Part shown: in pieces, positions 1 to 54,420 of the stretch
Layout of the letters: each line of letters opens with the position of its first letter
Position numbering within the stretch: position 1 is the first letter of the stretch
Assembly (NCBI GenBank): GCA_000004695.1
Contig: CM000151.3
Location: 6,816,001-6,880,000 of the forward strand
Length of the DNA stretch: 64,000 nucleotides
From: Dictyostelium discoideum
Lineage: Eukaryota
Reading direction: 5' to 3'
Position numbers and translations under genes: made by a program
The notes under the pieces: generated by a model
Seen by the model: the letters and a program-made list of their open reading frames with translations, nothing else
Told to the model about the DNA's origin: nothing
Databases searched by the model: none

Positions 1-2129
1 AAATTGATATAATAATTCAAAATAATAAACCATATCAAACAATTAAACAATTGTTTCAACTATTGGTTAATGAAACCAAATCAATTGTTTTATATGCCCG
101 TTATTTAAAAGAATATAATGAACTAATCGAAACCATTGAAACATGCCGTCAAATTCAATTATTGTTAATGTATTTCATGACAAAAACCTATAATACCAAT
201 GTATTAATGTTTCTATTGAAAAAAGATTTACATATCAAATTAACTTCGAACTATTGCGAACCATATCTTGATATTTTATTCGGATGTAATCAAATCGATA
301 AAACCAATATTATTATATTCTACAACACCTATAAATCACAAAAATCAATCATTGCGGAAGATATTGATAAAAAACCACTGGATGATTTAATATCAACAAA
401 GGATCTTGTTGATTTTGGTAATAAACAATTGCATTCAATTTTAGGTAATGAATCATCATCGAAATGGAAAGAAATTGCATCAAATCTAATTGATAATGAT
501 AAGATTGTTACAATTAAAGATAAAGAAACAATCGATTGGTTATCAGATATAGAAACAGGTGGTTGTAGTATTTTAAATATAAGAGATACTTTACATTCAA
601 AATTAAAACAAATGAAACTTGATTTTAGTACATCGGAATTATTAGAATATGCAAGAATCAAATTTAAACAAGTAATTCCAATTTTAGATTCAAATAAAAA
701 GTTGCCTAGTATCCACATTTTACGTACTCATGATGATATTGTATCATTAATCAATCGTTTAAATGAATCAAACTTTATTGATAATGAAAATTTATTTAAA
801 TATTATATGATTCAACTAATTCAATTTGGTTCAAGAAACTCAAATAAATACCAAAGATCAATTTGTGATAACGTTGGCGAGATTGATTTAGTTTTAGAAA
901 CCATGGTTGAACATTTTAATATTGAAGAATACTCCCAGGGAGCATACATTCAGGTTCACGACGATTTTAACAAATACAAAATACCAACTCAACAAATAAT
1001 CAATCTCTCTAAAATTAAAGTCAATGTCAATCACTTTCCAAATGCAACATCTTATTTACTTCAAACTTTTATCAAACTTTTAAATTTTGATGGTACTAAA
1101 TTTCTTCTTGATAATTCAAATGGTAAAAAATTATTATTTAATGAAAAAGCATTCAAAGATCGTTTTCACAATAGGATCTATATATCCAAATACTCATATA
1201 AAGGTTTAATAGATTTTATTCAATATTTAATTGATAAATTCTTAGAAGGTCCATTATCATTTACAAATTTATTATTGATACTGAATTTCTTATATTTAAA
1301 GTTAATAAGAGTCAATAATTTAACAATTGATCAAATTAAAACAGCATATCAATTAATATCAAACTATATTGAAATAAATCGTTCAAAACTCACATCATAC
1401 TATTATTTAAAAACATTATCACCAATTATTGCATCATGTATTACCGTTTGTGAAGATCCTACAGGTGAATATCCTACAAGTGGTTCTAAAAGAGAACGAC
1501 CATTCTTAAATTATGATATAGATACATCAGTATATACATTTGAATATATATTTTCAAATAGAACCAATGACGATTTGAACAAATTTATCGATTCAACAAT
1601 CATGGATATTGTAAAAGATAGTTATAATGTGGGAATGTTTTCTAAAATGTTAGATAATAATAATCCAAGAATTACTTTATTTTTACATTATCTTGAAATG
1701 GAATTGGAAAAAAGAAAGACAAACCAAATCAAAGAACCATTTTTAAATTATCAAATATTCAAATTAATAATTAAAACATTTGATATAGAATCATTTATTA
1801 AATTTGATAATTTATTACAACAAAATGAATTCCATATAATAAGAGAAAACCATAATGTTGTTAATGGTGAACAAGAGAATGCAAATGATTCAAGAGATGG
1901 TGAACAAAATGATATAAGTGATCATGGTGAACATGAAAATTTAACAATCAAAGAATTATTTTGTAATGGAGAAAAACCATTATTATCATCTAATATGGTT
2001 GAATGGTTAGGTGAAATTATAATTCACAAAGATTATTCAGATTATAAGGATATTATAAATTACTTATTCAAAAAATATGAACATCAATTGGGGACCACAC
2101 AACTTTTAATTAAAATCTGTACACATTAA
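1..2129 (+). CDS. Paralog A (partial, 5' end lies upstream of window) of a lineage-specific ~1070-aa protein family; C-terminal ~700 aa
   Basis: The reading frame is open from nt 3, and the listed TTG 'start' at 51 is internal. The translation (IDIIIQNNKPYQTIKQLFQLLVNETKSIVLYARYLKEYNE...) aligns colinearly with residues ~350-1068 of the minus-strand paralogs at 18384-21590 and 23123-26353. The stop is TAA at 2127-2129. No recognisable conserved domain. Confidence 0.8.
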   Translation, partial: IDIIIQNNKPYQTIKQLFQLLVNETKSIVLYARYLKEYNELIETIETCRQIQLLLMYFMTKTYNTNVLMFLLKKDLHIKLTSNYCEPYLDILFGCNQIDKTNIIIFYNTYKSQKSIIAEDIDKKPLDDLISTKDLVDFGNKQLHSILGNESSSKWKEIASNLIDNDKIVTIKDKETIDWLSDIETGGCSILNIRDTLHSKLKQMKLDFSTSELLEYARIKFKQVIPILDSNKKLPSIHILRTHDDIVSLINRLNESNFIDNENLFKYYMIQLIQFGSRNSNKYQRSICDNVGEIDLVLETMVEHFNIEEYSQGAYIQVHDDFNKYKIPTQQIINLSKIKVNVNHFPNATSYLLQTFIKLLNFDGTKFLLDNSNGKKLLFNEKAFKDRFHNRIYISKYSYKGLIDFIQYLIDKFLEGPLSFTNLLLILNFLYLKLIRVNNLTIDQIKTAYQLISNYIEINRSKLTSYYYLKTLSPIIASCITVCEDPTGEYPTSGSKRERPFLNYDIDTSVYTFEYIFSNRTNDDLNKFIDSTIMDIVKDSYNVGMFSKMLDNNNPRITLFLHYLEMELEKRKTNQIKEPFLNYQIFKLIIKTFDIESFIKFDNLLQQNEFHIIRENHNVVNGEQENANDSRDGEQNDISDHGEHENLTIKELFCNGEKPLLSSNMVEWLGEIIIHKDYSDYKDIINYLFKKYEHQLGTTQLLIKICTH

Positions 2130-2285: not shown

Positions 2286-3040
2286 TTAATTGTGAGTAAT
2301 AGTAGTGCCTAATAATTTAATGAATAATTGAATTAATTTTGGATGACATGGCCATGCTTTACCAGAAACGATATGACCATCAACAACAGCATCATCGACA
2401 GCGATATCTTGATAAATTCCACCAGCTTGTTGAACTTCTGGACGACATGCTGGGTATGCGGTACATTTAATACCTGAAACAATATTTGCAGCTGTTAAAA
2501 CTTGAGCACCATGACATACTGCTGCAATTGGTTTCTTATTTGTATTAAAATCTTTAACAATTTCAATAACTCTATCATCTAATCTTAAAAACTTTTTTTT
2601 TTTTTTTTTTTTTTTTTCATATTAGTATATTATAATATAATTTTCATTTTATTATTATTAAATGATTTGATTTAATACAAACCTCACTACAACGACCACC
2701 TGGTAAAAATAAACCATTATAAGTTGCAGTATCTACTTTATCAAAATCAAAGTTTAATTGAATTCTATGACCTTTTAATTCTGTATATGTTTGTTCACCT
2801 GTTTTTATTTTTTATTTTTTTTTAATTGGATTGCTAATAATAAAATAAATATAAAAAAGTAAAATAATAATACATACCTGGAAGGAAATCATGAATAGCA
2901 GTAACAATAAAATCACCACTCTTTTTACCTGGACTTACCAAATGAACGTTATATCCAACTAATTCTAACATTTGTTTAACTGCATAGGTTTCATAATCTT
3001 CTGTATAATCACCAGTGATAATTAAAATGTTTCTGGTCAT
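2286..3040 (-). CDS. DJ-1/PfpI family protein (class I glutamine amidotransferase-like), 3 exons: complement(join(2286..2591,2683..2798,2878..3040)), ~194 aa
   Basis: Exon 1 is MTRNILIITGDYTEDYETYAVKQMLELVGYNVHLVSPGKK...HDFLP, with donor G|GTATGT. Exon 2 is GEQTYTELKGHRIQLNFDFDKVDTATYNGLFLPGGRCSE, with donor GTTTGT. Exon 3 is FLRLDDRVIEIVKDFNTNKKPIAAVCHGAQVL...HN*. LFLPGG and AAVCHGAQ match the PfpI/DJ-1 nucleophile-elbow region (LLLPGG...AICHGP). Splice phases are consistent (1, 0). Confidence 0.7.
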
Positions 3041-3101
3041 TTTTGTTTTCTAATGCTTGAATGAATAAAATTTTATTAAATAATAATGTAAAGGAGTATT
3101 G

Positions 3102-3133
<32 letters not shown>

Positions 3134-3662
3134 AATTGGTTGAACAAAAAAAAAAAAAATAAAAAAAAAAATAAAAAAAAAATATAAAAAAAAATAAAAT
3201 TCTTTCCTAAATTTTAATTTAAGTTTCCGATTACTTCCCATTTTTTTTTATTAAAAAAACTAACTTTTCAAATTAATTCCTTTGGAAAAACTAGAAAAAT
3301 TAATTAAAAAAACAAAAAAAAATTTGGAAAAAGAAAGTACTTCCAAAGTATTTACATTTAAATAATTATTTACATAATTAAAATATTTCATTTTATTTAA
3401 ATTATTAACTTTTTTTTATTTTATTTTATTTTATTTTAATAGGGGACGAAACTAACAACTCCATTAAAAATTTGAAATTTTATTATGAAAATTATTTATT
3501 ATCAACATTTAATTTATTGATGATGCTCCATATGTTAAATATTAATATTAAGTTATTAAATTTTTAAAAATACAATAAATAAAATTAAAATTAAAAAACC
3601 TTTTTTTAATTTTTTATATGAATAAATAATTTTTCTTTTTTTCTTTTTTTTAAAATTTTTAT

Positions 3663-6600
3663 TTATAAATCATTCATCATAATAAAACCTTTTTTCTCTA
3701 AATTTAGTTTTTGTAAAGATAAATTATCAGTATTAAATAACCAACTATTTAAAGATACAATTATATAAGGTAATAAAGCAATTGATGGAGCAATAATTAA
3801 AAGTAGCCAAAAGGTTGGTAAAGCATAGAGTTCAAAGATGATATGGGTTGCATCAGCTTCTACGTATCTACCGAGTACACTATACAACATTACAAATAGG
3901 AAAGTGGAGACAACACTAATGGATACGGCTAAAATGGTTTGACGAGTCCAATAACGAGTGATGAAACTAATTTGTAAATTGACAGTGACTACCAAATAAA
4001 TGTAGGCAGCAGTACCAATGGACCAAAGACCAAGAGTTTTACCACCTTCAATGGTTGAAGTATTCATTACGAAAAAGGTTACAAAGAAAATAGTTGCTGA
4101 TTGCCACATACCAATGAAAACCCACCAAATAAATTTCCAAGTTGAAAATGGTGAATTTGATTGACAAACCCTATAGAGATATGGTTTGTTCAATAGGTCA
4201 TCCTCTTTGGTGTCTTGATCGAATGTACCTAAAAATATGACAGGTAATGATGTGAACAATGCATTGTAAAGAGTGAAAAGGAAATCGAAATAAATCATTT
4301 GACCACTAAAGCCTGAAAAGAAACCAAACCAAAATTGACTAATTGAGAGTGCAATATTCTTTGAAAATGAATAAAGGATTAACTTTGTCATTCTCTTGTA
4401 ACTACGATTGCCATGCACTAAAATTAAACGACGAAGCATTGAAAAGTTTGCAATTGCAAAATCGGAAGCCAATACCGCTTGCATACCCTCCCTACCACTA
4501 ATACCAACACCAACATGAGCCTTTTGAATCATTGGTACATCGTTTGCACCATCACCAATTGACATTGTAATTGCACCATCACCAAAGAGAAAACTTCTTT
4601 CCGCTACCAAATTTACAACCTTTGCTTTTTGGGAAGGTGAACAACGACAACAAACTACACTTTCACAAGTTTTGGCGACTTGTAAAAAGAAATAACGTAA
4701 ATCAGGCTCCAATGCCAAAGCCAATGTACTACCATCGATAATGATGGCGATATGTTTTTGACTTGCATTAACTGCTGGTGCTGACATTCCATTGGATTTA
4801 TTTAATAGATTTGGTGCATCTGAGGGCTCTAATCTTAATTTACTTGCAACTTTTTCCAAAAGTTTTGAAAGATACTTTACAGAACCCCATCTACCAGACA
4901 TATCATTGAAATGATGTAATCTCTTCTCGTTGGATATTGTTAACAATCTTTTCATCAATGCTTGTTTATTAGATTCATTCAATATAATCAACTCCATTTC
5001 TTCATTGATTACAGCGGATGAAGTTGAAATACTAATTGCCGTCTCTTGTTTATCACCTGTTAACACCCAAACTTTAATACCAGCCTCTCTTAGAGCCGAT
5101 ATTGTCTCTGGTACATGATCTTGTAATCTATCTTCAATACCTGTTGAACCAATTAATAATAGATCCTTTTCTATAAGTTCACAAGCTGCATCTACTTTCT
5201 CTGCTTTCTTCACCAAAGAGATTGAAGCCTCTTGATGAATTTTATTCCATGCTATATATTCCTCATGTTCAATGGTTCTAACTGACATACATAGTGTACG
5301 TAAACCTGAACATGCAAATTCACTTAGATGTTTCTCTGTTGATTGTAATATACCAACACAATGATCTGTATTCTTTTTTGCACGTTCAAATATTACAGAA
5401 TCTGCACCCTTACAATAAATTTTAATTTGATTCTTTTGATTCTTTACAATTACTGACATTCTCTTACGATAACTATTAAATTCCAATACATTTAATAATT
5501 CAAATCTTTCCTCTCTACCATGTACTGATATTGTTATGATATTATCCTCTCTTGACTTTAAAATGAAACCATATCTTGCTGCTGTTAATGTTAATGATTC
5601 TTCATCTGGTGATGCTGCTTGATATTTTGGTATTACACTACAACCACTATTTGTACCACCATTGAAATTATGATGACTCTTTGAATTATCATGATTCATC
5701 ATTAAATCATCAATTTCTTTATTCTTTTCAATTAATACAGTATTACAAATTGCTAAACATGTTAAAAATTCTTTAATATATTCAGTTTGATCCGATAATA
5801 TTGGTATTGAAATCTCTGGTTGTACTGGAATACCTAATGGATTTAATGAAGATGATGCATCACCACCACTACCACCACTACCACCACTACCACTACCACC
5901 ACCACTTAAACCATTACTTTGTCTTAGGTAAGAACCATTTGAACTATCTGATAATTGATTTTTAATAAATAATCTTAAATCTTGTAAACTTGAATCTTCA
6001 GGACCATAAACTTGACCACCGATTGTACAACGATTGAAAACCATTTCATTACAAGTTAAAGTACCAGTTTTATCAGAGAATAAATATTGAATTTGACCCA
6101 ATTCTTCATTGATATTTGTATTTCTAGCTTGTGCTGGTGTATCGGTTGATTCATCATACATCTCCAAATCACTATCGATGAAATGTGCATTTGATACTCT
6201 AATCATTTCCATAGAGACATACATTGACAATGGAATCAATGTATTGTAGAGTATAACATAACTTACATAGATGAAATCTTCGGTTTGTTCTGGATCATAA
6301 TCGATATACCATGGCTTTGCATCTTTATCATCCTCCAAATGCCATCTATTATGACCAATGGAACATATGATACAAATGATGGTTTGTAAAAGGAAAAGTA
6401 TTAAAAGTTTATTATTTACACCACGTTCAACTGATGAACGTTTTTGACTTGCTTTTGATGCATTCTTTTCAATCTTCGTATCTACACCACTATAGGTAAC
6501 CACACCAATCACCCAATCGGTATTACGAAGTTTAGTACCTCTCAATAGTAGTTGATCAATTGAAACTGGTACATAATTCGTAGTTGGTACAACAGTTGAA

Positions 6601-8881
6601 TCACCAATATTTGAACGTTCAAAACCTTTTAAAATTGTCAATACACCATCGAATGAATAAATGTCATTATTTGGTCCTTCATAATCAACTTTACAACTGA
6701 AATCATCTAAATCCTTTGCACCCTTTATCCATTGACATTTTGAAATGGATGATTTCGCTTTTAGATTGGTCTCGCCATCAAGATTTGCAGTCTCTAAATA
6801 TGCTCTACCATCGGATCTTGAAGAGCTTAAACAAATGATATCGGCTGGTAATGATTCACCATTCTTTACATAAATTATATCACCAACTTTAATATCTTCC
6901 CAATGACAACTTTGAAATACTCCAACCTTACTATAATCATTATCAGGTACCATTGGTATATTCTTTTCAGTTTGAATGTATTGTTGTTTAATTGAACCGA
7001 AAAAATTACCTATTCTACTAATGAAACCATTGAATCCACTTTGTCGTCTTTTTAAATCTTCTTTGCTAGCAGTTGGTGAAATAATATAAAATGGTGGTCT
7101 ATAAATTGAAGTTTCTCTACCATTAATCTCTTTATCTTGTTTATGACGTTTTAAATCCTCTGCCAACTCTTTAAATGATGTTACCGCTATAACCACCAAT
7201 AATGGTGTTAGCGAAGATACTGGTCCAACTGGTGAGAATGAAAACATACAAAGTATAACAATTGCCAATGTATAAAGATTTGCTAATCTTGAGAATTGAT
7301 AAAATATTACCTTTGGTATAAATGTAAAAACATTATATTTACTTGTAATAACTTGATTAGTTTTCATAGATAATAATTGTGATTTATCTGTTGAGGTAGC
7401 AACTGAACTTGTTATTTGTTCATTATTATTATTATTATGATTATTATTTAATCCATTATTATTATTGTTATTATTAATAATGTTATTATCATTATTATTA
7501 TAATTATTATTATTATGACCAGATGAGAATGGTGATTTTGGGAATAACTTTTTTAATTTAAAATATTGTTTAATCTTTTCACCTGTTGTTAATTTCTTTG
7601 TAATTGAAGTTGTGGTTGCAATTGCTTTCTTTACATCTGAACCATAGAAAAATATACATCTACTTGCTTTTGCTTGTGAACTACTACTTGATGCTGATTC
7701 ATCTCTTTCAATATCGAAACTACCAACCAAACTTGCAGTCAATAGAATCAATGAATTATCAGATGGATCTTGTAATGATACAACCGATACAAATAACTTC
7801 AAACCTAATAATATACCACCAATTATATTCAATATACATAATAATGAAACAAATAAAACATAACTCCAAAATGCTAATAACTCCTCTGTAAATGGTCTTG
7901 AACTTTGTGTATGTGCATATGTAAACGTCATAATTAAATCTAAAATCGTTGTGCTAAAACATCCAATAACATATAATAATATTAAATATGGTTTCAATCT
8001 TTTTACACCATATGATCCAATTACTAAAAATAATGCTATTTAAATATAATAATAAAAATATAAAAAATATTAATTAATACCCCTGTTTATCTCTGTCTGT
8101 CTGTCTGTTTGTTTGTTGTTTGTTTGTTTGTTTGTTTGTTTGTTTGTTTGTTTGTTTGTTTGTTTGTTTGTTAAATATATATATATAATCTTACCTTGAA
8201 AGAAAATTAATAACATAACATAATATTTCTCTAAAACGAAAATTGGTAAAGCTCTAATTAAATTACCAACGGTTTGAACTGTAATTATATGAGTTAACCA
8301 TTGTCTACCAACTCTCAATGCAATTGCATCTCTTTTTTTTCTTTGAACTGCACTATGTGATGCTTTTAAGATTGCAAGATATTGATCTGGTACTTGTGAT
8401 TGATGTTGTTTATGAATAAATACTTTTGAATTTCTTTGATTGTCGTCATTATTATCTTCATTATTATTATTATTATTATCATCATCATCATCATTATCTT
8501 TAATTATTATTGGTGTATTACTTTTATTTAAATCTGATTCTTTATCTTGTTTTTTCTTAAATATATTTCTTTTACTCTTTTTTTTATATTTCTTTTTATT
8601 ATTACTGTTATTATTATTATTATTACTATTATTATTCTCGCTATATACATCATTACCATTATTATTATTATTACTATTTGTATTGTTATAACTATTATTA
8701 CTATTAGAATTATTATTGGTATATGGATAATTAATATGATATGGTGAATTTGGTAATGAGTTTAATGGTACAGATGAAAATAGTTGTGAACTTTCAGTTA
8801 AATGAGGATTTATATACCCATTATTATTATTATTATTATTTTGTTGTTGGTGTTGTTGATGTTGTTGTTGATATTGTTGAT

Positions 8882-18218: not shown

Positions 18219-18224
<6 letters not shown>
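16779..18224 (+). CDS. Adenylate kinase-like / NMP kinase domain protein with N-terminal extension; join(16779..17160,17287..17364,17467..18224); possible extra 5' micro-exon ATGATAAAA at 16630-16638
   Basis: The P-loop is FLAGAPGSGKGTNTE and the NMP-binding motif is VIIDGFPRSAKQV, both diagnostic of the adenylate kinase family. Exon junctions are ATGA|GTAATT -> aaaag|GTTCAAAAAG...AATCTTG|GTAAGT -> caatag|ATGAAAG, all in consistent phase (1, 1). The possible upstream exon is ATGATAAAA|GTAAGTTT (16630-16638), with acceptor ttttaaaag|GGATCAAGTATG in frame (phase 0). Confidence 0.7.
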
Positions 18225-18249
<25 letters not shown>

Positions 18250-18383
18250 TAAATTATATACACATTAAAATTTTTTACCGATAAATATATTAAAATTAAT
18301 TATTCTATTTTATTCTTTATTATTTTTACAAAGTTAATTTCGAATAATATTGATTTAATGCGTATTGGTTTTTACTAATAGTT

Positions 18384-21300
18384 CTAACCAAATTTTTGAT
18401 TTAAAAGTTTTAATTTATAGTAAATTACATATGGTTCCAATTGGTGTTTATATTTATCAAATAAGTGATTTATAATATCTTGATAATCTGAATAATCTTT
18501 GTATATAATTGTACCAAACCATTCAACCATATTAGTTGATAATGGTTTGCCATATTCATCCAATTGTTTGGTTATTGAATTTACATGTTCACCATCATCA
18601 TTTGCATCCTCTTGTTCACCATTAACAACATTATGATTCTCTCTTTTTAAATGGATTTCATATTGTTGTAATAAATTATCTAATTTAATAAATGATTCTA
18701 AATCAAATGTTTTAATTATTAGCTTCAATAGTTGATAATCTAAAAATGGTTCTTTGACTTCATTTGTCTTTCTAAATTTTAATTCAATTTCGAAATAATG
18801 TAAAAATAAATTAATTCTTGGATTATTATTATATAACATTTTGGGAAATATTTCCATATTAAAATCATTTTTTGTAATTTCCATGACTGTTGAATCGATA
18901 AATTGGTTTAAATCGTTATTATTTCTCTTTGTAAATATGTTTTCGAATGTATATACTGATATATCTATATGATAATATAATAATGGTCTTTTAAAACCAG
19001 TTAAAGGATCTACACTAACGGTAATACATGATGCAATAATTGGTGATAGTGTTTTTAAATAATAGTATGAATTATGTTTTGAACTAGCTATTTTAATATA
19101 GTTTGATATTAATTGATAAGCTGTTTTGATTTGATCAATTGTTAAATTATTGACTCTAATTAACTTTAAAAATAAGTAATTCAATATCAATGATAAATTT
19201 GATAATGATAATTGACCATCTTTGAATTTATCGATTAAAAATTGAATCATTTCAATTAAATCTTTATATAAATATTTGCATGTATAGATTCTATCTTGAA
19301 AACGATCTTTAAATGCTTCTTCTAATTCTAAATCTTTACCATTTAAATTATCAAGAATAAACTGAACACCTTCAAAATTTAAAAGTTCTACAAATATATG
19401 AAATAAATAAGAAGTTACATTTGGAAAGTGATTGAAATTGACTTTAATTTTAGTGAGATTGATTATTTGGCATGTTTGTTGAGTTGGTATTTTGAATTCT
19501 TTGAATTTTTCATTTTCATGATAACTTTCTGAATGGTCCCAAACCTCTCCTTCGTCGGTGTATGAATTAGTATAAAACCTTTTAACCACAAAATTGAAAA
19601 GTTTTATTACAAAATCACCCCAATCATCATAATCTGAATAAAACTCATCAATAGAATCACAAATTAATCTTAGGTATTTAATTGAATTTCTTGAACCAAA
19701 TTGAATTATTTGAATCATATAATATTTAAATAAATCTTCACTGTTATTAAAGTTTGATTGGTTTAAACCGTTTATTAGTGATACAATATCATCATGAGTA
19801 CGTAAAATGTGAATATTACACAACTCTTTATTTGAATCTAAAATTGGAATTACTTGCTTAAATTTGATTCTTGCATATTCTAATAATTCTGATGTACTAA
19901 AATCAAGTTTCATTTGTTTTAATTTTGAATGTAAAGCATTTCTTATATTTAAAATACTACAACCACCACCTGTTTCTATATCTGATAACCAATCGATTGT
20001 TTCTTTATCTTTAATTGTAACAATCATATCATTATCAATTAGATTTGATGTAATTTCTTTCCATTTCGATGATGATTTACTACATAAAATGGAATTCAAC
20101 TGTTTATCACCTAAAGCTATATCCTCCTGCTCCTTTGTCGGTATTATATTATTTAATAGCTTTTCATCAATATTTTCTATAATGATTGATTTTTGTGATA
20201 TATAGATTTTGTTGAATTTATTAATATTGTTTTTATTAATTTGATTATCTTTGAATAAAATATTGAGAAATGATCTACTAATACTGGCTAAATCTGATTT
20301 TGTTAAAATAATTTTTATATGTTTTTTCAATAGAAACTTTAATATATTGGTGTTATAGGTTTTTGTCATGAAATAGAGTAATACTACCATCATTTCTTCG
20401 TCAGGTTCAATATTATCAATTGGTTCATTATATTCTTTTAAATAACATGCATATAAAACAATTGATTCAGTTTCATTGATTAATAGTTGAAATAGTTGTT
20501 TAATTGATTGATATAGCGTACAACGTCTATGTTTATTATTTTGAATTATTATATCAATTTGAGTTTGAATAGATGTCGGTATACTTTTTTTTGATTTACC
20601 TCCATAATAATAGTTGCAGTAATACAATTTAAAATATAATAAAACTGAATTAATTGATGTAGAGATATACTCTAATTCTCCTTTAACATCTTTTATGTGC
20701 TCATTAATACATTTATCAAATCCATAACAAAAACTTGAAACCATATCTTTATGACGAGCTGACTCTCTAATTTTTTCAAATCTTGGTAGTAATGGTTTGT
20801 GTGGTATTTTAACATTATGACCTAAATTTTCTGCTGGATAATAAAATGACGTTCGAATATTATTATAACCTAATGATAGTAATTTTTGAAATTTCAAATA
20901 CCAACGTACATTCACATTTATACCTGTTCTTGAAAATGTCTGAAGATCATATAGATCTCTAAATATTGATGTTGGTGATATTGGAATATTCAATATTATT
21001 TTAATCTTTTCTTTAATTTCTTCATGATTGTCAAGATCTTCAAAGCCATTACATGAAATACAGTCCATAATGAAATAATTTCTTTCGATTTTTGTTAAAG
21101 TGAATGGTTTATTATCATTGAGGTATTGTTCATAATAATCTAAAACTCTCATTAACAATTTTGGGTGATTAAGTCGAAAGATTGATTTTATCATTGATGG
21201 AATATAGGTTTGTAATTCTTCTGGATGATATTTTAAATGAATATCAAATAAATCTACTGATTTTATACCCCAAATCTTATCGAATAAAATTTTAACATCA

Positions 21301-21590
21301 CCTCTGTAACCTTTAAAAAGTAATAATGAATATATCTCTTTGAATACTTCTATATCTTTTATTTCATTGATTTTAGCATTTCCATATGAACTCTTAAAAT
21401 TTAAAATTTCATCTGCTTTTAATTTACATATCAAAAGTTGATATTGTTTATGTTTTAACATTGAATATATTGATGTAATAGTTTTAAATTTTTTACTTTT
21501 ATGACAACATTTATTTTTTAATATATAATTTAATAAATATTTATTTTTAAAAACTTTCCAAAATAATCTTTCATTATATTCATTATTCAT
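18384..21590 (-). CDS. Paralog B (full length, 1068 aa) of the lineage-specific protein family; single exon
   Basis: This is a continuous 1068-aa ORF in ~78% AT DNA. It is >90% identical over the N-terminal ~640 aa to the ORF at 23123-26353. The 3' flank (~90 nt) is also duplicated. No known domain is recognised. Confidence 0.85.
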   Translation of the reverse strand: MNNEYNERLFWKVFKNKYLLNYILKNKCCHKSKKFKTITSIYSMLKHKQYQLLICKLKADEILNFKSSYGNAKINEIKDIEVFKEIYSLLLFKGYRGDVKILFDKIWGIKSVDLFDIHLKYHPEELQTYIPSMIKSIFRLNHPKLLMRVLDYYEQYLNDNKPFTLTKIERNYFIMDCISCNGFEDLDNHEEIKEKIKIILNIPISPTSIFRDLYDLQTFSRTGINVNVRWYLKFQKLLSLGYNNIRTSFYYPAENLGHNVKIPHKPLLPRFEKIRESARHKDMVSSFCYGFDKCINEHIKDVKGELEYISTSINSVLLYFKLYYCNYYYGGKSKKSIPTSIQTQIDIIIQNNKHRRCTLYQSIKQLFQLLINETESIVLYACYLKEYNEPIDNIEPDEEMMVVLLYFMTKTYNTNILKFLLKKHIKIILTKSDLASISRSFLNILFKDNQINKNNINKFNKIYISQKSIIIENIDEKLLNNIIPTKEQEDIALGDKQLNSILCSKSSSKWKEITSNLIDNDMIVTIKDKETIDWLSDIETGGGCSILNIRNALHSKLKQMKLDFSTSELLEYARIKFKQVIPILDSNKELCNIHILRTHDDIVSLINGLNQSNFNNSEDLFKYYMIQIIQFGSRNSIKYLRLICDSIDEFYSDYDDWGDFVIKLFNFVVKRFYTNSYTDEGEVWDHSESYHENEKFKEFKIPTQQTCQIINLTKIKVNFNHFPNVTSYLFHIFVELLNFEGVQFILDNLNGKDLELEEAFKDRFQDRIYTCKYLYKDLIEMIQFLIDKFKDGQLSLSNLSLILNYLFLKLIRVNNLTIDQIKTAYQLISNYIKIASSKHNSYYYLKTLSPIIASCITVSVDPLTGFKRPLLYYHIDISVYTFENIFTKRNNNDLNQFIDSTVMEITKNDFNMEIFPKMLYNNNPRINLFLHYFEIELKFRKTNEVKEPFLDYQLLKLIIKTFDLESFIKLDNLLQQYEIHLKRENHNVVNGEQEDANDDGEHVNSITKQLDEYGKPLSTNMVEWFGTIIYKDYSDYQDIINHLFDKYKHQLEPYVIYYKLKLLNQKFG

Positions 21591-21849
21591 TATAATTAAT
21601 TATTAATTTATTATTTATTATTTCAACGTTTTATGAAATATCTTTTGAAAAAAAAAAAAAAAAAAAAAAAAAAAGAATTTTTTTTAAAAAATTAAAAATA
21701 TTTTTTGGAAATTTTTTTTTTGAAAAAAAAAAAGAAATTAAAAAAAAAATTTTTTTTATTAAATTTTTTTCTAAAAAAGAAATTTCTAAAAATAACTTAA
21801 TGTGAGAATTAATATATTTTTTTAAATTTGAAAATTCACCCTTTTTTTA

Positions 21850-21880
<31 letters not shown>

Positions 21881-21992
21881 TCCTTCCTTGTGAGTTTTTT
21901 TTATAACCAAAAAAATAATTTTTAAAAAAATTAAATTACCTTAAATTTGAAATCTTTTTTTATAAAATGTTTGTTTTAAGAATTTTTTTCCG

Positions 21993-22033
<41 letters not shown>

Positions 22034-22097
22034 CAATAGTTAGTTATTTATTTTTTTTTTTTTTTTTTTTTTTATTAATCAAATTTATTTTTTATTC

Positions 22098-22100
22098 TTT

Positions 22101-22131
<31 letters not shown>

Positions 22132-22206
22132 TTATTAATTTATTAATTTGAATCCATATTAATTTCAGCAGCCAAAAAAAACTAAATAAAAAAATAAATA
22201 AAAAAA

Positions 22207-22237
<31 letters not shown>

Positions 22238-22250
22238 AAAAATAAACAAA

Positions 22251-22289
<39 letters not shown>

Positions 22290-22292
22290 ATA
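22098..22292. repeat. Inverted pair of (TTTA)n / (AAAT)n microsatellites flanking a ~50-bp spacer
   Basis: (ttta)n runs ~22098-22135 and (aaat)n runs ~22186-22292 on the same strand. They are reverse complements of each other. Confidence 0.85.
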
Positions 22293-22616
22293 TATAAACC
22301 AAATTAACAAAAAAAAAAAAAAAAATAAAATAAAATAAAGGATAAAAAAAAAAAAAAAATTCAAATGTATAAACATTAAAAAGTGGTCATCATCACCATC
22401 ATATTTTTCTTCTTATTTTTCTTATCAAATTATTACAATCAATTAAGAAAGATAAAGAGAAAAATCTTGTTTTGATCAAATTTTAAGGTTGGTGAAAAGT
22501 AATTTTTTGCTGCACTGGTTGGTTGATGGCACAGTATGAGTAGTTATTAGTTGGTGCACCATCAACTACTCATGTTGAATCACCAGGCTCACCTACTCAA
22601 GCTGCACCATAATAAT

Positions 22617-22631
<15 letters not shown>

Positions 22632-22715
<84 letters not shown>

Positions 22716-22740
22716 AAAGAATAAATAAATAAATAAAAAA
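22632..22740. repeat. (AAAT)n microsatellite
   Basis: aataaataaataaataaa... read directly. Confidence 0.9.
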
Positions 22741-23122
22741 CAAATAAAACTAGTTTTAATAAATCTAAAACTTTGTAAATGTGTTTTGAAAAAAAAAAAA
22801 AAAATTTTGGTTTAAAATTCAAAAAAAGAATTATCTTCTCTAAAAACGAAACCCTTTTCAAATGATAATTGTTGAACACCACTACTACAATCACTACCAT
22901 GAATCTATTAATTTTATTTTATTTTATTTTTTAAACAAATCAATTTTTAAATTATAAATTAAAAAAAAAAAAAAAAAGATTTTAAATAATTAAATTAGAT
23001 ATTTTATTATTATAATTTTTATTTATTTTTTTATTTTAATTTAATGTTTAATTATTTTTTTTTATACTTTATTATTTTTAGAAAGTTAATTTCAAATAAT
23101 ACAGATTTAATTTGTATAGGTT

Positions 23123-26100
23123 TTAACTAATAGTCTTAACCAGATTTTGATTTAAAAGTTTTAATTTATAGTAATATATATATGGTTCTAATTGGTGTTT
23201 ATATTTATTAAATAAGTGATTTATAATATCTTGATAATCTGAATAATCTTTGTATATAATTGTACCAAACCATTCAACCATATTAGTTGATAATGGTTTG
23301 CCATATTCATCCAATTGTTTGGTTATTGAATTTACATGTTCACCATCATCATTTGCATCCTCTTGTTCACCATTAACAACATTATGAATATCTCTTCTCA
23401 AATAGATTTCATATTTTTGTAATAAATTATCTAATTTAATAAATGATTCTAAATCAAATGTTTTAATTATTAGCTTCAATAGTTTATAATCTAAAAATGG
23501 TTTTTTGATTTCATTTGTTTTTCTTTTTTCTAATTCCATTTCGAAATAATGTAAAAATAAATTAATTCTTGGATTATTATTATTATTATATAACATTTTG
23601 GAAAATATTTCCATATTAAAACCATCTTTTACAATATCTATGATTGTTGAATCGATAAATTGGTTTAAATCGTTATTATTTCTATTTTTAAATATATTTT
23701 TGAATGTATACACTGATGCATCTATATTATAACCACAGAATGGTGTTCCTTTTTTAAAACCATTTGCAGGATCTTTAATAATTGTAATACATGATTCAAT
23801 AATTGGTGATAATGTTTTTAAATAATAGTATGATGTGTGTTTTGAACTATCTATTTTAATATAGTTTGATATTAATTGATGAGCTGTTTTGATTTGATCA
23901 ATTGTTAAATTATTGACTCTAATTAACTTTAAAAATAAGTAATTCAATATCAATGATAAATTTGATAATGATAATTGACCATCTTTGAATTTATCGATTA
24001 AAAATTGAATCATTTCAATTAAATCTTTATATAAATATTTGCATGTATAGATTCTATCATGAAAACCATCTTGAAATGGTTCTGTATTTAATTCTAAATG
24101 TTTACCATTTAAATTATCAAGAATAAATTGAACACCTTCAAAATTTAAAAGTTTGATAAATGTTTGAAATAAATTAGAGGTTTCATATTGAAAGAGATTA
24201 ACTTTAACTTTAATTTTAGTAAGATTGATTATTTGACATGTTTGTTGAGTTGGTATTTTGTATTTGTTGAATTCTTCATTTTGATAATAACCAAGTGAAT
24301 CCTCTGAAACATCTGCATTATAGGAGTATGAGTTTGTAAAAAACTTAATAACCTTATAATCGAAAATACTAACTACTAAACCACCCAAACCATCATAACC
24401 TGAATAAAATTCGTCAGTGGAATCACAAATTAATCTTAGATATTTAATTGAATTTCTTGAACCAAATTGAATTAGTTGAATCATATAATATTTAAATAAA
24501 TTTTCATTATCATTAAAGTTTGATTGGTTTAAACGATTGATTAATGATACAATATCATCATGAGTACGTAAAATGTGAATATTACACAACTCTTTATTTG
24601 AATCTAAAATTGGAATTACTTGCTTAAATTTGATTCTTGCATATTCTAATAATTCTGATGTACTAAAATCAAGTTTCATTTGTTTTAATTTTGAATGTAA
24701 AGCATTTCTTATATTTAAAATACTACAACCACCACCTGTTTCTATATCTGATAACCAATCGATTGTTTCTTTATCTTTAATTGTAACAATCTTATCATTA
24801 TCAATTAGATTTGATGTAATTTCTTTCCATTTCGATGATGATTTACTACATAAAATGGAATTCAACTGTTTATCACCTAAAGCTATATCCTCCTGCTCCT
24901 TTTTCGATTTTATATTATTTAATAGCCTTTCATCAATATTTTCTATAATGATTGATTTTTGTGATATGTAGATTTTGTTGAATTTATTAATATTGTTTTT
25001 ATTAATTTGATTATCTTTGAATAAAATATTGAGAAATGATCTACTAATACTGGCTAATTCTGATTTTTTTAAATTGATTTTTATATGTTTTTTCAATAGA
25101 AACTTTAATATATTGGTGTTATAGGTTTTTGTCATGAAATAGAGTAATACTATTATCATTTCTTCATCAGGTTCAATATTATCAATTGGTTCATTATATT
25201 CTTTTAAATAACATGCATATAAAACAATTGATTCAGTTTCATTGATTAATAGTTGAAATAATTGTTTAATTGATTGATATAGCGTACAACGTCTATGTTT
25301 ATTATTTTGAATTATTATATCAATTTGAGTTTGAATAGATGTTGGTATACTTTTTGATTTACCTCCATAATAATAGTTGCAATAATATAATTTAAAATAT
25401 AATAAAACTGAATTAATTGATGTAGAGATATACTCTAATTCTCCTTTAACATCTTCTATGTGCTCCTTAATACATTTATCAAATCCATAACAAAAACTTG
25501 AAACCATATCTTTATGACGAACTGACTCTCTAATTTTTTCAAATTTTGGTAGTAATGGTTTGTGTGGTATTTTAATATTGTGACCTAAATTTTCTGCTGG
25601 ATAATAAAATGACGTTCGAATATTATTAAAACCTAATGATAGTAATTTTTGAAATTTCAAATACCAACGTACATTCACATTTGTATCTGTTCTTGAAAAT
25701 ATCTCAAGATCACATAGATCTCTAAATATTGATGTTGTTGAAATTGGAATATTCAATATTATTTTAATCTTTTCTTTAATTTCTTCATGATTGTCAAGAT
25801 CTTCAAAGCCATTACATGAAATACAGTCCATAATGAAATAATTTCTTTCGATTTTTGTTAAAGTGAATGGTTTATTATCATTGAGGTATTGTTCATAATA
25901 ATCTAAAACTCTCATTAACAATTTTGGGTGATTAAGTCGAAAGATTGATTTTATCATTGATGGAATATAGGTTTGTAATTCTTCTGGATGATATTTTAAA
26001 TGAATATCAAATAAATCTACTGATTTTATGCCCCAGATAGTATCAAATAAATTTTTAACATCTCGATAACCTTTAAAAAGTAATAATGAATATATCTCTT

Positions 26101-26353
26101 TGAATACTTCTATATCTTTTATTTGATTCATGATTTTATCATTTTCATATGCACTCTTTAAGTACAAATTTTCATTTACTTTTAATTTATATATCAACAG
26201 TTGATATTGTTTATGTTTTAACATTGAACCTATTGATGTAATAGTTTTAAATTTTTTACTTTTATGACAACATTTATTTTTTAATATATTATTTAATAAA
26301 TATAAATTTTTAAAAACTTTCCAAAATAATCTTTCATTGTATTCATTATTCAT
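23123..26353 (-). CDS. Paralog C (full length, 1076 aa) of the lineage-specific protein family; tandem duplicate of 18384-21590
   Basis: This is a continuous 1076-aa ORF. It is head-to-tail with paralog B, and the unit length is ~4.74 kb. The N-terminal two-thirds are nearly identical to B. The C-terminal third is mosaic. Confidence 0.85.
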   Translation of the reverse strand: MNNEYNERLFWKVFKNLYLLNNILKNKCCHKSKKFKTITSIGSMLKHKQYQLLIYKLKVNENLYLKSAYENDKIMNQIKDIEVFKEIYSLLLFKGYRDVKNLFDTIWGIKSVDLFDIHLKYHPEELQTYIPSMIKSIFRLNHPKLLMRVLDYYEQYLNDNKPFTLTKIERNYFIMDCISCNGFEDLDNHEEIKEKIKIILNIPISTTSIFRDLCDLEIFSRTDTNVNVRWYLKFQKLLSLGFNNIRTSFYYPAENLGHNIKIPHKPLLPKFEKIRESVRHKDMVSSFCYGFDKCIKEHIEDVKGELEYISTSINSVLLYFKLYYCNYYYGGKSKSIPTSIQTQIDIIIQNNKHRRCTLYQSIKQLFQLLINETESIVLYACYLKEYNEPIDNIEPDEEMIIVLLYFMTKTYNTNILKFLLKKHIKINLKKSELASISRSFLNILFKDNQINKNNINKFNKIYISQKSIIIENIDERLLNNIKSKKEQEDIALGDKQLNSILCSKSSSKWKEITSNLIDNDKIVTIKDKETIDWLSDIETGGGCSILNIRNALHSKLKQMKLDFSTSELLEYARIKFKQVIPILDSNKELCNIHILRTHDDIVSLINRLNQSNFNDNENLFKYYMIQLIQFGSRNSIKYLRLICDSTDEFYSGYDGLGGLVVSIFDYKVIKFFTNSYSYNADVSEDSLGYYQNEEFNKYKIPTQQTCQIINLTKIKVKVNLFQYETSNLFQTFIKLLNFEGVQFILDNLNGKHLELNTEPFQDGFHDRIYTCKYLYKDLIEMIQFLIDKFKDGQLSLSNLSLILNYLFLKLIRVNNLTIDQIKTAHQLISNYIKIDSSKHTSYYYLKTLSPIIESCITIIKDPANGFKKGTPFCGYNIDASVYTFKNIFKNRNNNDLNQFIDSTIIDIVKDGFNMEIFSKMLYNNNNNPRINLFLHYFEMELEKRKTNEIKKPFLDYKLLKLIIKTFDLESFIKLDNLLQKYEIYLRRDIHNVVNGEQEDANDDGEHVNSITKQLDEYGKPLSTNMVEWFGTIIYKDYSDYQDIINHLFNKYKHQLEPYIYYYKLKLLNQNLVKTIS

Positions 26354-26479
26354 TATAATTAATTTTTTTTACTTATTATTGTTTGTTGTTTGTGGGTTTT
26401 TTGAAAAAAAAAAAAAAAAAAAAAAAAAAAGATAAAAAAACGAAAAAAATGTTGCCTGTGCGATTTTAATTGTTCCTTT

Positions 26480-26610: not shown

Positions 26611-27370
26611 AAGAAAGAGAAATTATATGTAATCACTGTTGTGTATTCTTTAGTGCAATAAAATGATGTTTGAGTATCATTAAATTCAAAAGGTATTAAT
26701 TTTTGATATTGTAGATACCAAAGTACATCCACACTTGTATCTACACTTGGAACTATTTTTTCTGAATCTTCAAATATTGAGGTTGACGATATTGGAATAT
26801 TCGATATTATTTTCATCCTTTCTTTAATTTCTTCAATATCGCATCGATATCCTTTTAAAGTTAAATATTTCATAATGAAATAATTTCTTTCATTTTTACT
26901 ATGGTTTATTATGATTGGTGGACTCTTTAAAAAATTTTAAAACCTTTATTATTAATTTTGGATGATTATATAGGATGATTGAATCTATATATCCTGTATT
27001 AATATGGGTTTGTAATTTTTCTGGATGATATTTTAAATGAAAATCAAATAAATCTACCGATTTTGTACCCCAAATCCTATCGAATAAAATAGGATGATAA
27101 CTATCATCTTGATAACCTTTAAAAAGTAATAATGAATATATCTCTTTGAATACTTCTATATCTTTTATTTCATTAATGATTTTATTATTTCTATATGCAC
27201 CCTTAAAATTTATCAACAGTTGATATTGTTTATGTTTTAACATTGAATCTATTGGTGTGATGTTTTTAAATTTTTTACTTTTATGACAACATTTATTTTA
27301 TAATGTATAAATTTAATAAATATTTATTTTTAAAAACTTTCCAAAATAATGATTCATTATATTCATTATA
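26480..27370 (-). pseudogene. Truncated, frame-disrupted copy (psi-D) of the same family. It keeps only the region homologous to N-terminal residues ~1-270.
   Basis: ORF fragments at 26899-27243 (MLKHKQYQLLI...KDIEVFKEIYSLLLFKGY...DLFDFHLKYHPEKLQ) and 26490-26873 (...ISNIPISSTSIFEDSEKI...VLWYLQYQKLIPFEF) align to B/C residues ~45-260. The upstream piece reads MNIMNHYFGKFLKINIY*..NKCCHKSKKFK, with stops and frameshifts. Homology ends abruptly near 26480. Confidence 0.75.
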
Positions 27371-27514
27371 ATTATTTTTTTTGTTTCAAAATTATCAATT
27401 AAAATTAAATGAATAATCTTTGATATAAATTATAACTTTATTTTTATTAAAAAAAAAAATAAAAAATAATAAAAAAAATTTTAAAGTTAAATAGAATTAA
27501 TTTTATTTTTACTG

Positions 27515-47247: not shown

Positions 47248-47320
47248 CGCCCAAAGGGGGGCTCGAACCCCCGACCACAAGGTTAAAAGCCTTGCGCTCT
47301 ACCGACTGAGCTATCTGGGC
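47248..47320 (-). tRNA. tRNA-Lys (anticodon UUU)
   Basis: The reverse complement is GCCCAGATAGCTCAGTCGGTAGAGCGCAAGGCTTTTAACCTTGTGGTCGGGGGTTCGAGCCCCCCTTTGGGCG. It has a cloverleaf with A box TAGCTCAGTCGG and B box GGTTCGAGCCC. The anticodon loop is CTTTTAA. It is followed by the T-run AAATTTTTT (Pol III terminator). Confidence 0.9.

Positions 47321-51376: not shown

Positions 51377-54420
<3,044 letters not shown>

Follow-up and report, generated by a model that had tools for sequence, protein, structure and literature searches.

Islands of divergence under interlocus gene conversion have reportedly been modelled by Teshima and Innan. Among described cases, the GOT1 paralogs of Tigriopus californicus keep such islands despite conversion (PMC3728101), and mammalian gene pairs under long-term concerted evolution likewise retain them (PMC2720389). 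Here we analyse two tandem genes, B and C, in a stretch of 64,000 nucleotides (nt) of the Dictyostelium discoideum genome (contig CM000151.3, positions 6,816,001 to 6,880,000), which we call the window and whose G+C content is ~20%. As in GOT1 and the mammalian pairs, these nearby paralogs are partly homogenised, discrete islands are kept across lineages, and paralogs within a genome are closer to one another than to their orthologs in the tracts only. B and C differ from those pairs in belonging to another family, in packing at least three tracts and four islands into a 3.2-kb single-exon gene, and in showing copy-number variation. The pattern is that of textbook interlocus conversion with persistent islands of divergence, a known mechanism at work in an uncharacterised family.

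Within D. discoideum itself, the tgrB and tgrC genes are clustered, evolve by birth and death, leave pseudogene relics and carry mosaic hypervariable segments with homogeneous flanks; tgr paralogs are mixed in trees, which has been ascribed to interlocus gene conversion, and the proteins have a transmembrane segment (10.1101/2025.10.22.684067). The B/C array resembles tgr in its host organism, its clustered paralogs, its birth-and-death turnover, its relics, its mosaic hypervariable segments between homogeneous stretches and the mixing of its paralogs in trees. Tgr proteins are located at the cell surface and have Ig-like folds. B and C, unlike them, have no Pfam domain, no hydrophobic segment reaching a Kyte–Doolittle mean of 1.6 and no sequence relationship to Tgr, and their hypervariable block is kept between orthologs (few strains being compared), unlike the hyperpolymorphic tgr segments. 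The possibility that B and C are Tgr proteins was considered and rejected: there is no Ig-like or TIG Pfam match and no transmembrane segment, and the N terminus is hydrophilic. Because the Tgr-defining domains are absent, B and C are not Tgr proteins.

Divergence between B and C is mosaic

B and C are direct tandem repeats with a spacing of 4.76 kb, and their coding sequences share 93.8% DNA identity. A maximum chi-square scan places the main change in divergence at B nt 1813 (window position 19778), with 3.2% nucleotide divergence on the 5′ side and 10.0% on the 3′ side (chi-square 62.2; the highest of 2,000 permutations reached 23.3, p≤0.0005). Amino acid (aa) differences follow suit, at 43 of 640 positions in residues 1–640 versus 91 of 428 in residues 641–1068 (Fisher p=3.9e-12). 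The initial annotation had described the two proteins as alike to about residue 640 and divergent beyond it, and to this extent it was right; divergence along the alignment is far from uniform. The sharply different block of ~60 aa that it singled out corresponds to B aa 641–700 (B 19491–19670; C 24257–24436), where 25% of nucleotides differ, and every peptide that it quoted is present in the sequences of B, C or A, a third, partial copy at the start of the window. Its outline needs correcting in two places. The near-identity of the N-terminal part holds overall, but is broken by an island (O1, Table 1), and the patchy C-terminal third, whose patches are real, also includes two near-identical tracts (S2 and S3).

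Besides the independent assembly ACTFIT (L001), syntenic arrays for comparison were retrieved by exact-protein look-up from three further assemblies, ACTFIR (L002), ACTFIW (L004) and the 'cf. discoideum' assembly ACTFIY (L003). Suffixes denote the source of a gene (w, window; r, ACTFIR; v, ACTFIW), and Y1 and Y2 are the ACTFIY genes. Counted per 150 nt, B–C differences give matching profiles in the window, ACTFIR and ACTFIW.

Same-strain paralogs cluster in the tracts

For the quartet Cw, Bw, Cr and Br, we sorted informative sites as ortholog-type, strain-type (uniting the paralogs of one strain) or other, obtaining 100, 31 and 5, respectively. The classes are clustered along the gene (23 runs versus 48.3 expected; none of 10,000 shuffles was as low, p<1e-4), and a second quartet, with ACTFIW, agrees. 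The resulting site map divides B into four ortholog-type segments, the islands O1–O4, and three strain-type segments, the tracts S1–S3 (Table 1). The contrast is plain in alignment columns 451–600, where Cw–Bw and Cr–Br each show 0 differences while Cw–Cr and Bw–Br each show 6. Neighbour-joining bootstrap support for (Bw,Cw) is 100% in aa 111–300 and 86% in aa 951–1068, whereas (Bw,Br,Bv) and (Cw,Cr,Cv,Y2) are recovered at 99–100% in aa 641–760 and aa 851–950.

Formal tests of recombination are significant, both by the pairwise homoplasy index (PHI; p=0.002 with 6 sequences, p=0.003 with 11) and by a Sawyer-type (GENECONV-type) longest-fragment test, in which Cw–Bw (p=0.001) and Cr–Br (p=0.0005) both survive correction for 15 pairs. 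When the strain-type sites are polarised, the derived state falls in the window lineage at 21 of 31 and in ACTFIR at 9 of 31; conversion therefore occurred in both lineages. Quartet sites restricted to codons whose amino acid is invariant across the quartet repeat the block order (runs p=0.02), with ortholog-type sites at aa 52, 63, 648–675, 839 and 857 and strain-type sites at 168–578, 786–830 and 956–957. Since the order holds at synonymous sites too, the signal reflects ancestry and not selection on the protein alone. Gene conversion between paralogs, one of two processes proposed at the outset for the patchwork, is thus demonstrated by the quartet, bootstrap, PHI, longest-fragment and synonymous-site results alike. 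The emphasis of that proposal has to be reversed: the near-identical parts are the converted ones, and the divergent patches are old islands.

Table 1 Islands, tracts, gene copies and neighbouring genes in the window (B nt and B aa are counted along copy B)
Feature	Position in window	Strand	Position in C	B nt	B aa	Description
Island O1	21382–21527	-	26145–26290	64–209	22–70	Paralog-specific; 9.6% B–C nt divergence
Tract S1	19857–21275	-	24623–26038	316–1734	106–578	2.3% divergence; strain-specific shared sites prevail
Island O2	19304–19736	-	24067–24502	1855–2287	619–763	16.4% divergence; holds the hypervariable block
Tract S2	19094–19251	-	23857–24014	2340–2497	780–833	1 difference in 158 nt
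Island O3	18774–19074	-	23525–23837	2517–2817	839–939	13.6% divergence; HYFE(I/M)EL(K/E)(F/K)RKTN patch; paralog omega 1.1–1.9
Tract S3	18467–18723	-	23218–23474	2868–3124	956–1042	2.3% divergence; overlaps the significant Sawyer-type Cw–Bw fragment
Island O4	18391–18458	-	23143–23209	3133–3200	1045–1067	C-terminal tail; 9.0% divergence
Copy B	18384–21590	-				Intact single-exon open reading frame (ORF), 1068 aa; identical to DDB_G0276409 (AX4)
Copy C	23123–26353	-				Intact ORF, 1076 aa; matches DDB_G0276547 / ACTFIT_004372
Copy A, partial	3–2129	+				C-terminal 708 codons + stop, clipped by window start; identical to DDB_G0276403
Relic D	26646–27400	-				N-terminal ~250 codons of a fourth paralog, degenerate; several stops and frameshifts
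P4-type phospholipid flippase (P4-ATPase)	3663–7997					
RapGAP	52201–54420					
tRNA-Lys(UUU) gene	47248–47320	-				

The islands are older than the tracts

Between B and C, synonymous divergence (dS) is low in aa 111–640 (0.048) and much higher in the hypervariable block (0.35) and in aa 701–760 (0.23). Between orthologs, dS in aa 111–640 is 0.075–0.12, and the P4-ATPase, which serves as a neutral benchmark for the strain split, has a dS of 0.069 between the window and ACTFIR. Tract dS lies below both the ortholog and the benchmark values and island dS above them; hence the tracts arose after the strains had split, and the islands go back several-fold further. In 'cf. discoideum', Y2 already carries C-type islands.

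The duplicated unit extends beyond the genes, from 22959 to 26432 on the C side and from 18221 to 21676 on the B side. Its non-coding flanks are only 77% (18221–18383 / 22959–23122) and 70% (21591–21676 / 26354–26432) identical, well below the coding sequence, which indicates an old duplication with homogenisation limited to the gene. Nor does B–C identity follow family-wide conservation (rho -0.26). The family's most variable part, aa 181–300 (pairwise identity 0.31–0.54), has only 0–4 of 20 residues differing between B and C. Given this uncoupling, constraint is not the explanation for the near-identical tracts.

Islands define B-type and C-type genes

The islands are common to orthologs in all strains examined and define B-type and C-type genes. 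None of the sampled paralogs makes a plausible donor: outside the orthologs, identity peaks at 62% (B) and 52% (C) within the hypervariable block and at 74% (B) and 82% (C) in aa 839–939. With no credible donor, the divergent patches do not look recently imported.

Between paralogs, omega (dN/dS, dN being nonsynonymous divergence) is 0.85–0.92 in the hypervariable block and 1.1–1.9 in aa 851–950; between orthologs it is ~0.4–0.8 in both regions, and family-wide it is 0.97 in the block. We also made a McDonald–Kreitman (MK)-type contrast of nonsynonymous/synonymous (N/S) counts, with 3 sequences per paralog and with inter-lineage divergence in the place of polymorphism. Fixed B–C differences in the islands (N/S 62/9) are richer in nonsynonymous changes than within-paralog differences between strains (57/33; p=0.0006), and over the whole gene the figures are 76/12 versus 222/145 (p=1.6e-6). 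The within-paralog ratio of 57/33 is itself below neutral (p=4e-5). Since the fixed differences are rich in nonsynonymous changes and the within-paralog ones poor, the islands are functional and constrained now, after an earlier period of divergence at a neutral or faster rate. This fits past divergence of the paralogs followed by constraint, and not ongoing allelic diversification. Localized diversifying selection, the other process originally proposed, therefore keeps part of its ground: the MK-type excess speaks for it, while omega is not significantly above 1 and selection between orthologs is purifying.

Copy A and the conserved core

Copy A lies ~16 kb from B in inverted orientation. At the B–C difference sites that it covers, A matches C at 60 and B at 56, and the two kinds of match are clustered (runs p=0.011): A=C prevails at B aa 601–650 and 901–950, A=B at 751–800, 851–900 and 951–1000. 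The patchwise likeness of A to C that the initial annotation pointed out is therefore present, if modest. It gives poor support to an A–C exchange: outgroups bear the C state at 37 of the 56 A=C sites that could be decided, so that most of these matches reflect change on the B lineage.

Exchange involving A is better indicated in the core. At B nt 1593–1742, Aw differs from Bw or Br by 2–4 nt and from its own ACTFIR ortholog (L005 10001–13117) by 14 nt. Over B nt 1651–1848 there are 'crossed' sites in succession (Aw=Br, Bw=Ar), and family-wide dS is 0.11 in the core (aa 501–640) versus 0.37–0.38 in the adjoining segments. From this combination, the inverted copy, too, has traded sequence with the B/C lineage within the core, and exchange at the locus thus includes A.

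Weighing the explanations

Our preferred reading, which we put at a probability of about 0.85, is that B and C are old tandem paralogs whose backbone is homogenised by recurrent interlocus gene conversion while old islands escape. Ectopic conversion between the direct repeats has overwritten S1, S2 and S3 repeatedly since the sampled strains diverged; the four islands have escaped overwriting and are older than the divergence of the strains and of 'cf. discoideum'. Conversion would have proceeded by ordinary homologous-recombination repair with the neighbouring copy as template. The escape might have either or both of two causes: the islands may make B and C functionally different, in which case selection would purge converted alleles, or an island divergence of 14–25% may itself block heteroduplex formation. 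Placed between two helical domains, the hypervariable block probably acts as an insert that determines specificity.

Several observations weigh against this reading or blunt it. Restricted to third codon positions, the Sawyer-type test is weaker (Cw–Bw p=0.06, Cr–Br p=0.017). Scattered ortholog-type sites occur inside S1 (B nt 653, 668, 888, 898, 1204, 1283 and 1448–1454), for which reason tract limits are approximate and S1 is taken as a composite of several shorter tracts. The sample is small, with three arrays of the D. discoideum lineage and one of 'cf. discoideum', and the events are few and non-independent. On the side of selection, the values of omega above 1 in the islands are not significant (binomial p=0.13 and 0.27), and the MK-type scoring takes sites singly in multi-hit codons, which may inflate nonsynonymous counts. 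The pattern suggests selection for different properties of B and C, and it is from sequence comparison that we infer protection of the islands.

A young duplication without any conversion, its patches reflecting local constraint or local positive selection, would account for the hypervariable block being likewise the family's most variable and worst-modelled part (identity 0.37–0.56, pLDDT ~25) with an omega of ~0.9–1.0. We consider it very improbable, as dS itself varies ~7-fold across blocks (0.048 versus 0.35), synonymous quartet sites share the block structure, same-strain paralogs group against orthologs with 100% bootstrap in aa 111–300, the flanks are merely 70–77% identical, and the family-variable aa 181–300 are almost identical between B and C. 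The opposite polarity, in which a recent duplicate received its divergent patches from other family members and the islands are the converted parts, draws on the mosaic character of the family at large (the low-dS core beside its adjoining segments), on A being nearer to B and C than to its own ortholog at B nt 1593–1742, on the alternation of A=C and A=B patches, and on the weak clustering (63%) of the B hypervariable block with Y1. It remains unlikely to our minds: no sampled paralog comes close to either island at the identities given above, the diverged non-coding flanks favour an old duplication, and the islands are kept in orthologs of three strains, C-type ones also in Y2, and so are older than the tracts. 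That the mosaic is an artefact of assembly or sequencing, such as collapsed or chimeric near-identical repeats, deserves thought because tandem repeats in a genome of ~78% AT are hard to assemble; it is scarcely credible here, since the independent ACTFIT assembly reproduces the coding sequences of both genes without a difference, B and A match AX4 reference proteins exactly, and three further assemblies, ACTFIR and ACTFIW among them, show the same block pattern.

A more serious contender accepts the same mosaic and denies selection for distinct functions, the islands persisting passively because they have passed recombination's limit of divergence. The frequency of interlocus conversion drops steeply as sequence divergence rises, and the islands are 9–25% divergent versus 0.6–2.3% for the tracts; the lack of significance of paralog omega above 1 in the islands is also as this account would have it. 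Against it stand purifying selection within each paralog lineage (omega ~0.4, and the below-neutral N/S), the significant MK-type contrast, which implies that the differences are not functionless, and the persistence of O1 at only 9.6% divergence. We hold passive persistence to be possible, though the less probable account of why the islands endure. Recurrent conversion of the backbone is common to this account and to our preferred reading.

The array in other assemblies

The same ADK-like and ADH-like genes border the family array in all fetched assemblies. The ACTFIT assembly is 99.3% identical to window 8332–31637. In ACTFIR and ACTFIW four family genes stand in the order P-C-B-X, while the window and ACTFIT carry a relic of P followed by C and B, with X absent; in ACTFIY the array consists of Y1 and Y2. 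The nearest relative of relic D is the intact paralog P upstream of C in ACTFIW (84% nt identity). In the ACTFIW ortholog of C (L004 4982–8257), codon 313 is an in-frame stop, the only one to interrupt a frame of 1091 codons; the public annotation spans this stop with an 'intron', and the stop marks a base-calling error or else a pseudogene of very recent origin. From the differing gene orders and the stop in ACTFIW C, the locus is a birth-and-death array with copy-number polymorphism.

Between the window and ACTFIR, the P4-ATPase (compared with L005) has an omega of 0.09 alongside its dS of 0.069, and flanking genes differ by 1–2%. Nucleotide diversity across the species D. discoideum is ~0.003 (10.1101/2025.10.22.684067), a value that the P4-ATPase dS far exceeds. 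Two readings suggest themselves: ACTFIR and ACTFIW may simply be lineages that have diverged, or the region of the locus may be an unusually deep haplotype.

At the 3′ end of C (23123–23140), a 1-nt deletion relative to all relatives creates a novel tail, NLVKTIS followed by the stop. Public models of C (AX4, 1180 aa; ACTFIT, 1101 aa) lengthen the C terminus by means of a predicted 3′ intron, for which no evidence was seen in this analysis. A pair of 113-aa antisense ORFs lies on the plus strand inside B (19864–20205) and C (24630–24971); the simplest view of them is as a side effect of duplicating AT-rich sequence.

A family confined to the D. discoideum complex

The 31 relatives returned by a phmmer-type word-indexed search all bear the name D. 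discoideum or cf. discoideum. A profile hidden Markov model (HMM) run against 1.84 billion cluster representatives gave 21 matches, made up of family members or fragments and three short proteins; the library carries no organism names, and we infer the origin of the matches that were not checked. Neither the phmmer-type nor the profile HMM search detected homologs beyond the D. discoideum complex. To judge from these searches, the B/C family is restricted to that species complex and is fast-evolving, with a dN 5–6 times that of the neighbouring P4-ATPase. Its identifiers are DDB_G0276401, 0276403, 0276409, 0276547, 0276559, 0271218 and 0271262; a search of a literature library on these seven and on Q551Q4 found no paper.

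Pfam searches of B, C and A (E≤0.01) and of 23 aligned members (E≤1) gave chance-level matches only, and a profile search of PDB sequences found nothing at E≤10. The three short proteins (P0045–P0047) share only the N-terminal module of ~60 aa (B residues 1–60; LFWKVFxNKYLxNxI ... FKxIxSxxWMxKxKQYQLLxCKL), and the one that was checked is D. discoideum DDB_G0273369. This module may be a shared lineage-specific domain; word-indexed searches with the DDB_G0273369 module and with B residues 1–130 returned only the query or short family fragments.

The family also varies in architecture. P0002 (DDB_G0276559, 1615 aa), P0003 (ACTFIR_006386, 1630 aa), P0007 and P0016 contain one or two additional tandem copies of the C-terminal half, which restart at ~aa 495 with 'KQLHSIL..SSSKWKEI', an internal segmental duplication. 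In P0029 (DDB_G0271262) and P0027 (ACTFIT_002057), a signal-peptide-like N terminus (MNKIIIFILLIITLSFVLG...) is joined to family residues from ~365 to the end, which looks like a chimeric gene at a second locus on chromosome 2.

Predicted structure

No hydrophobic segment of the membrane-span type is present (the highest 19-residue Kyte–Doolittle mean is 1.35 against a threshold of 1.6). AlphaFold2 predicts an all-helical protein at full length (predicted local distance difference test, pLDDT, 57.8; predicted template modelling score, pTM, 0.38), with better values for the C-terminal half (pLDDT 65.7, pTM 0.62) and a confident core at B aa 710–979. The hypervariable block lies between helical domains and is in effect unmodelled (pLDDT ~25–45). 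Foldseek found no match in the PDB at E≤0.001, the top hits being generic alpha-solenoids at E≥0.012 and template modelling (TM) scores ≤0.22. These predictions describe B and C as probable soluble all-alpha proteins of ~1050 aa. With low confidence, we suggest a soluble helical scaffold or adaptor in which the variable insert and the aa 839–939 surface would set binding specificity.

The stacked helical hairpins of the models recall the all-alpha solenoids of CAND1, importin-beta, the condensin HEAT subunits and Pumilio, a resemblance that the Foldseek scores and the full-length pTM do not allow to be called homology. The repeat domains of fungal NLR proteins are fast-evolving helical-repeat recognition modules (PMC13449251). 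By analogy, the B/C family may be compared with them in being lineage-restricted and copy-number-variable, with local hypervariability in a repetitive helical scaffold; unlike the fungal proteins, B and C have no NACHT, NB-ARC or other recognisable domain.

One could take the family for a previously unrecognised recognition or conflict system, for example a set of sensors or adaptors inside the cell that take part in defence or social conflict or belong to a selfish genetic element, with the aa 641–700 insert and the aa 839–939 island as specificity determinants, selection keeping B and C distinct and copy number polymorphic between strains. Such a role would be compatible with a complex-restricted family, with the elevated dN, with an island omega of ~1–1.9 followed by constraint and with birth-and-death turnover. 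Nothing points to it positively, and we think it improbable.

Implications

The B/C mosaic opens no new mechanism. It is a compact and well-resolved instance of partial concerted evolution, in which no fewer than three tracts are interleaved with four islands in a single intron-less gene pair of 3.2 kb; this resolution is owed to the presence of the syntenic array in several long-read assemblies. In practice, short-read mapping and ortholog dN/dS on B and C genes mislead unless the tracts are partitioned. For the biology of the D. discoideum complex, the locus flags a copy-number-variable family with protein evolution ~5-fold faster than that of its neighbours and with discrete candidate specificity regions; besides the tgr genes, few such families have been studied in D. 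discoideum.

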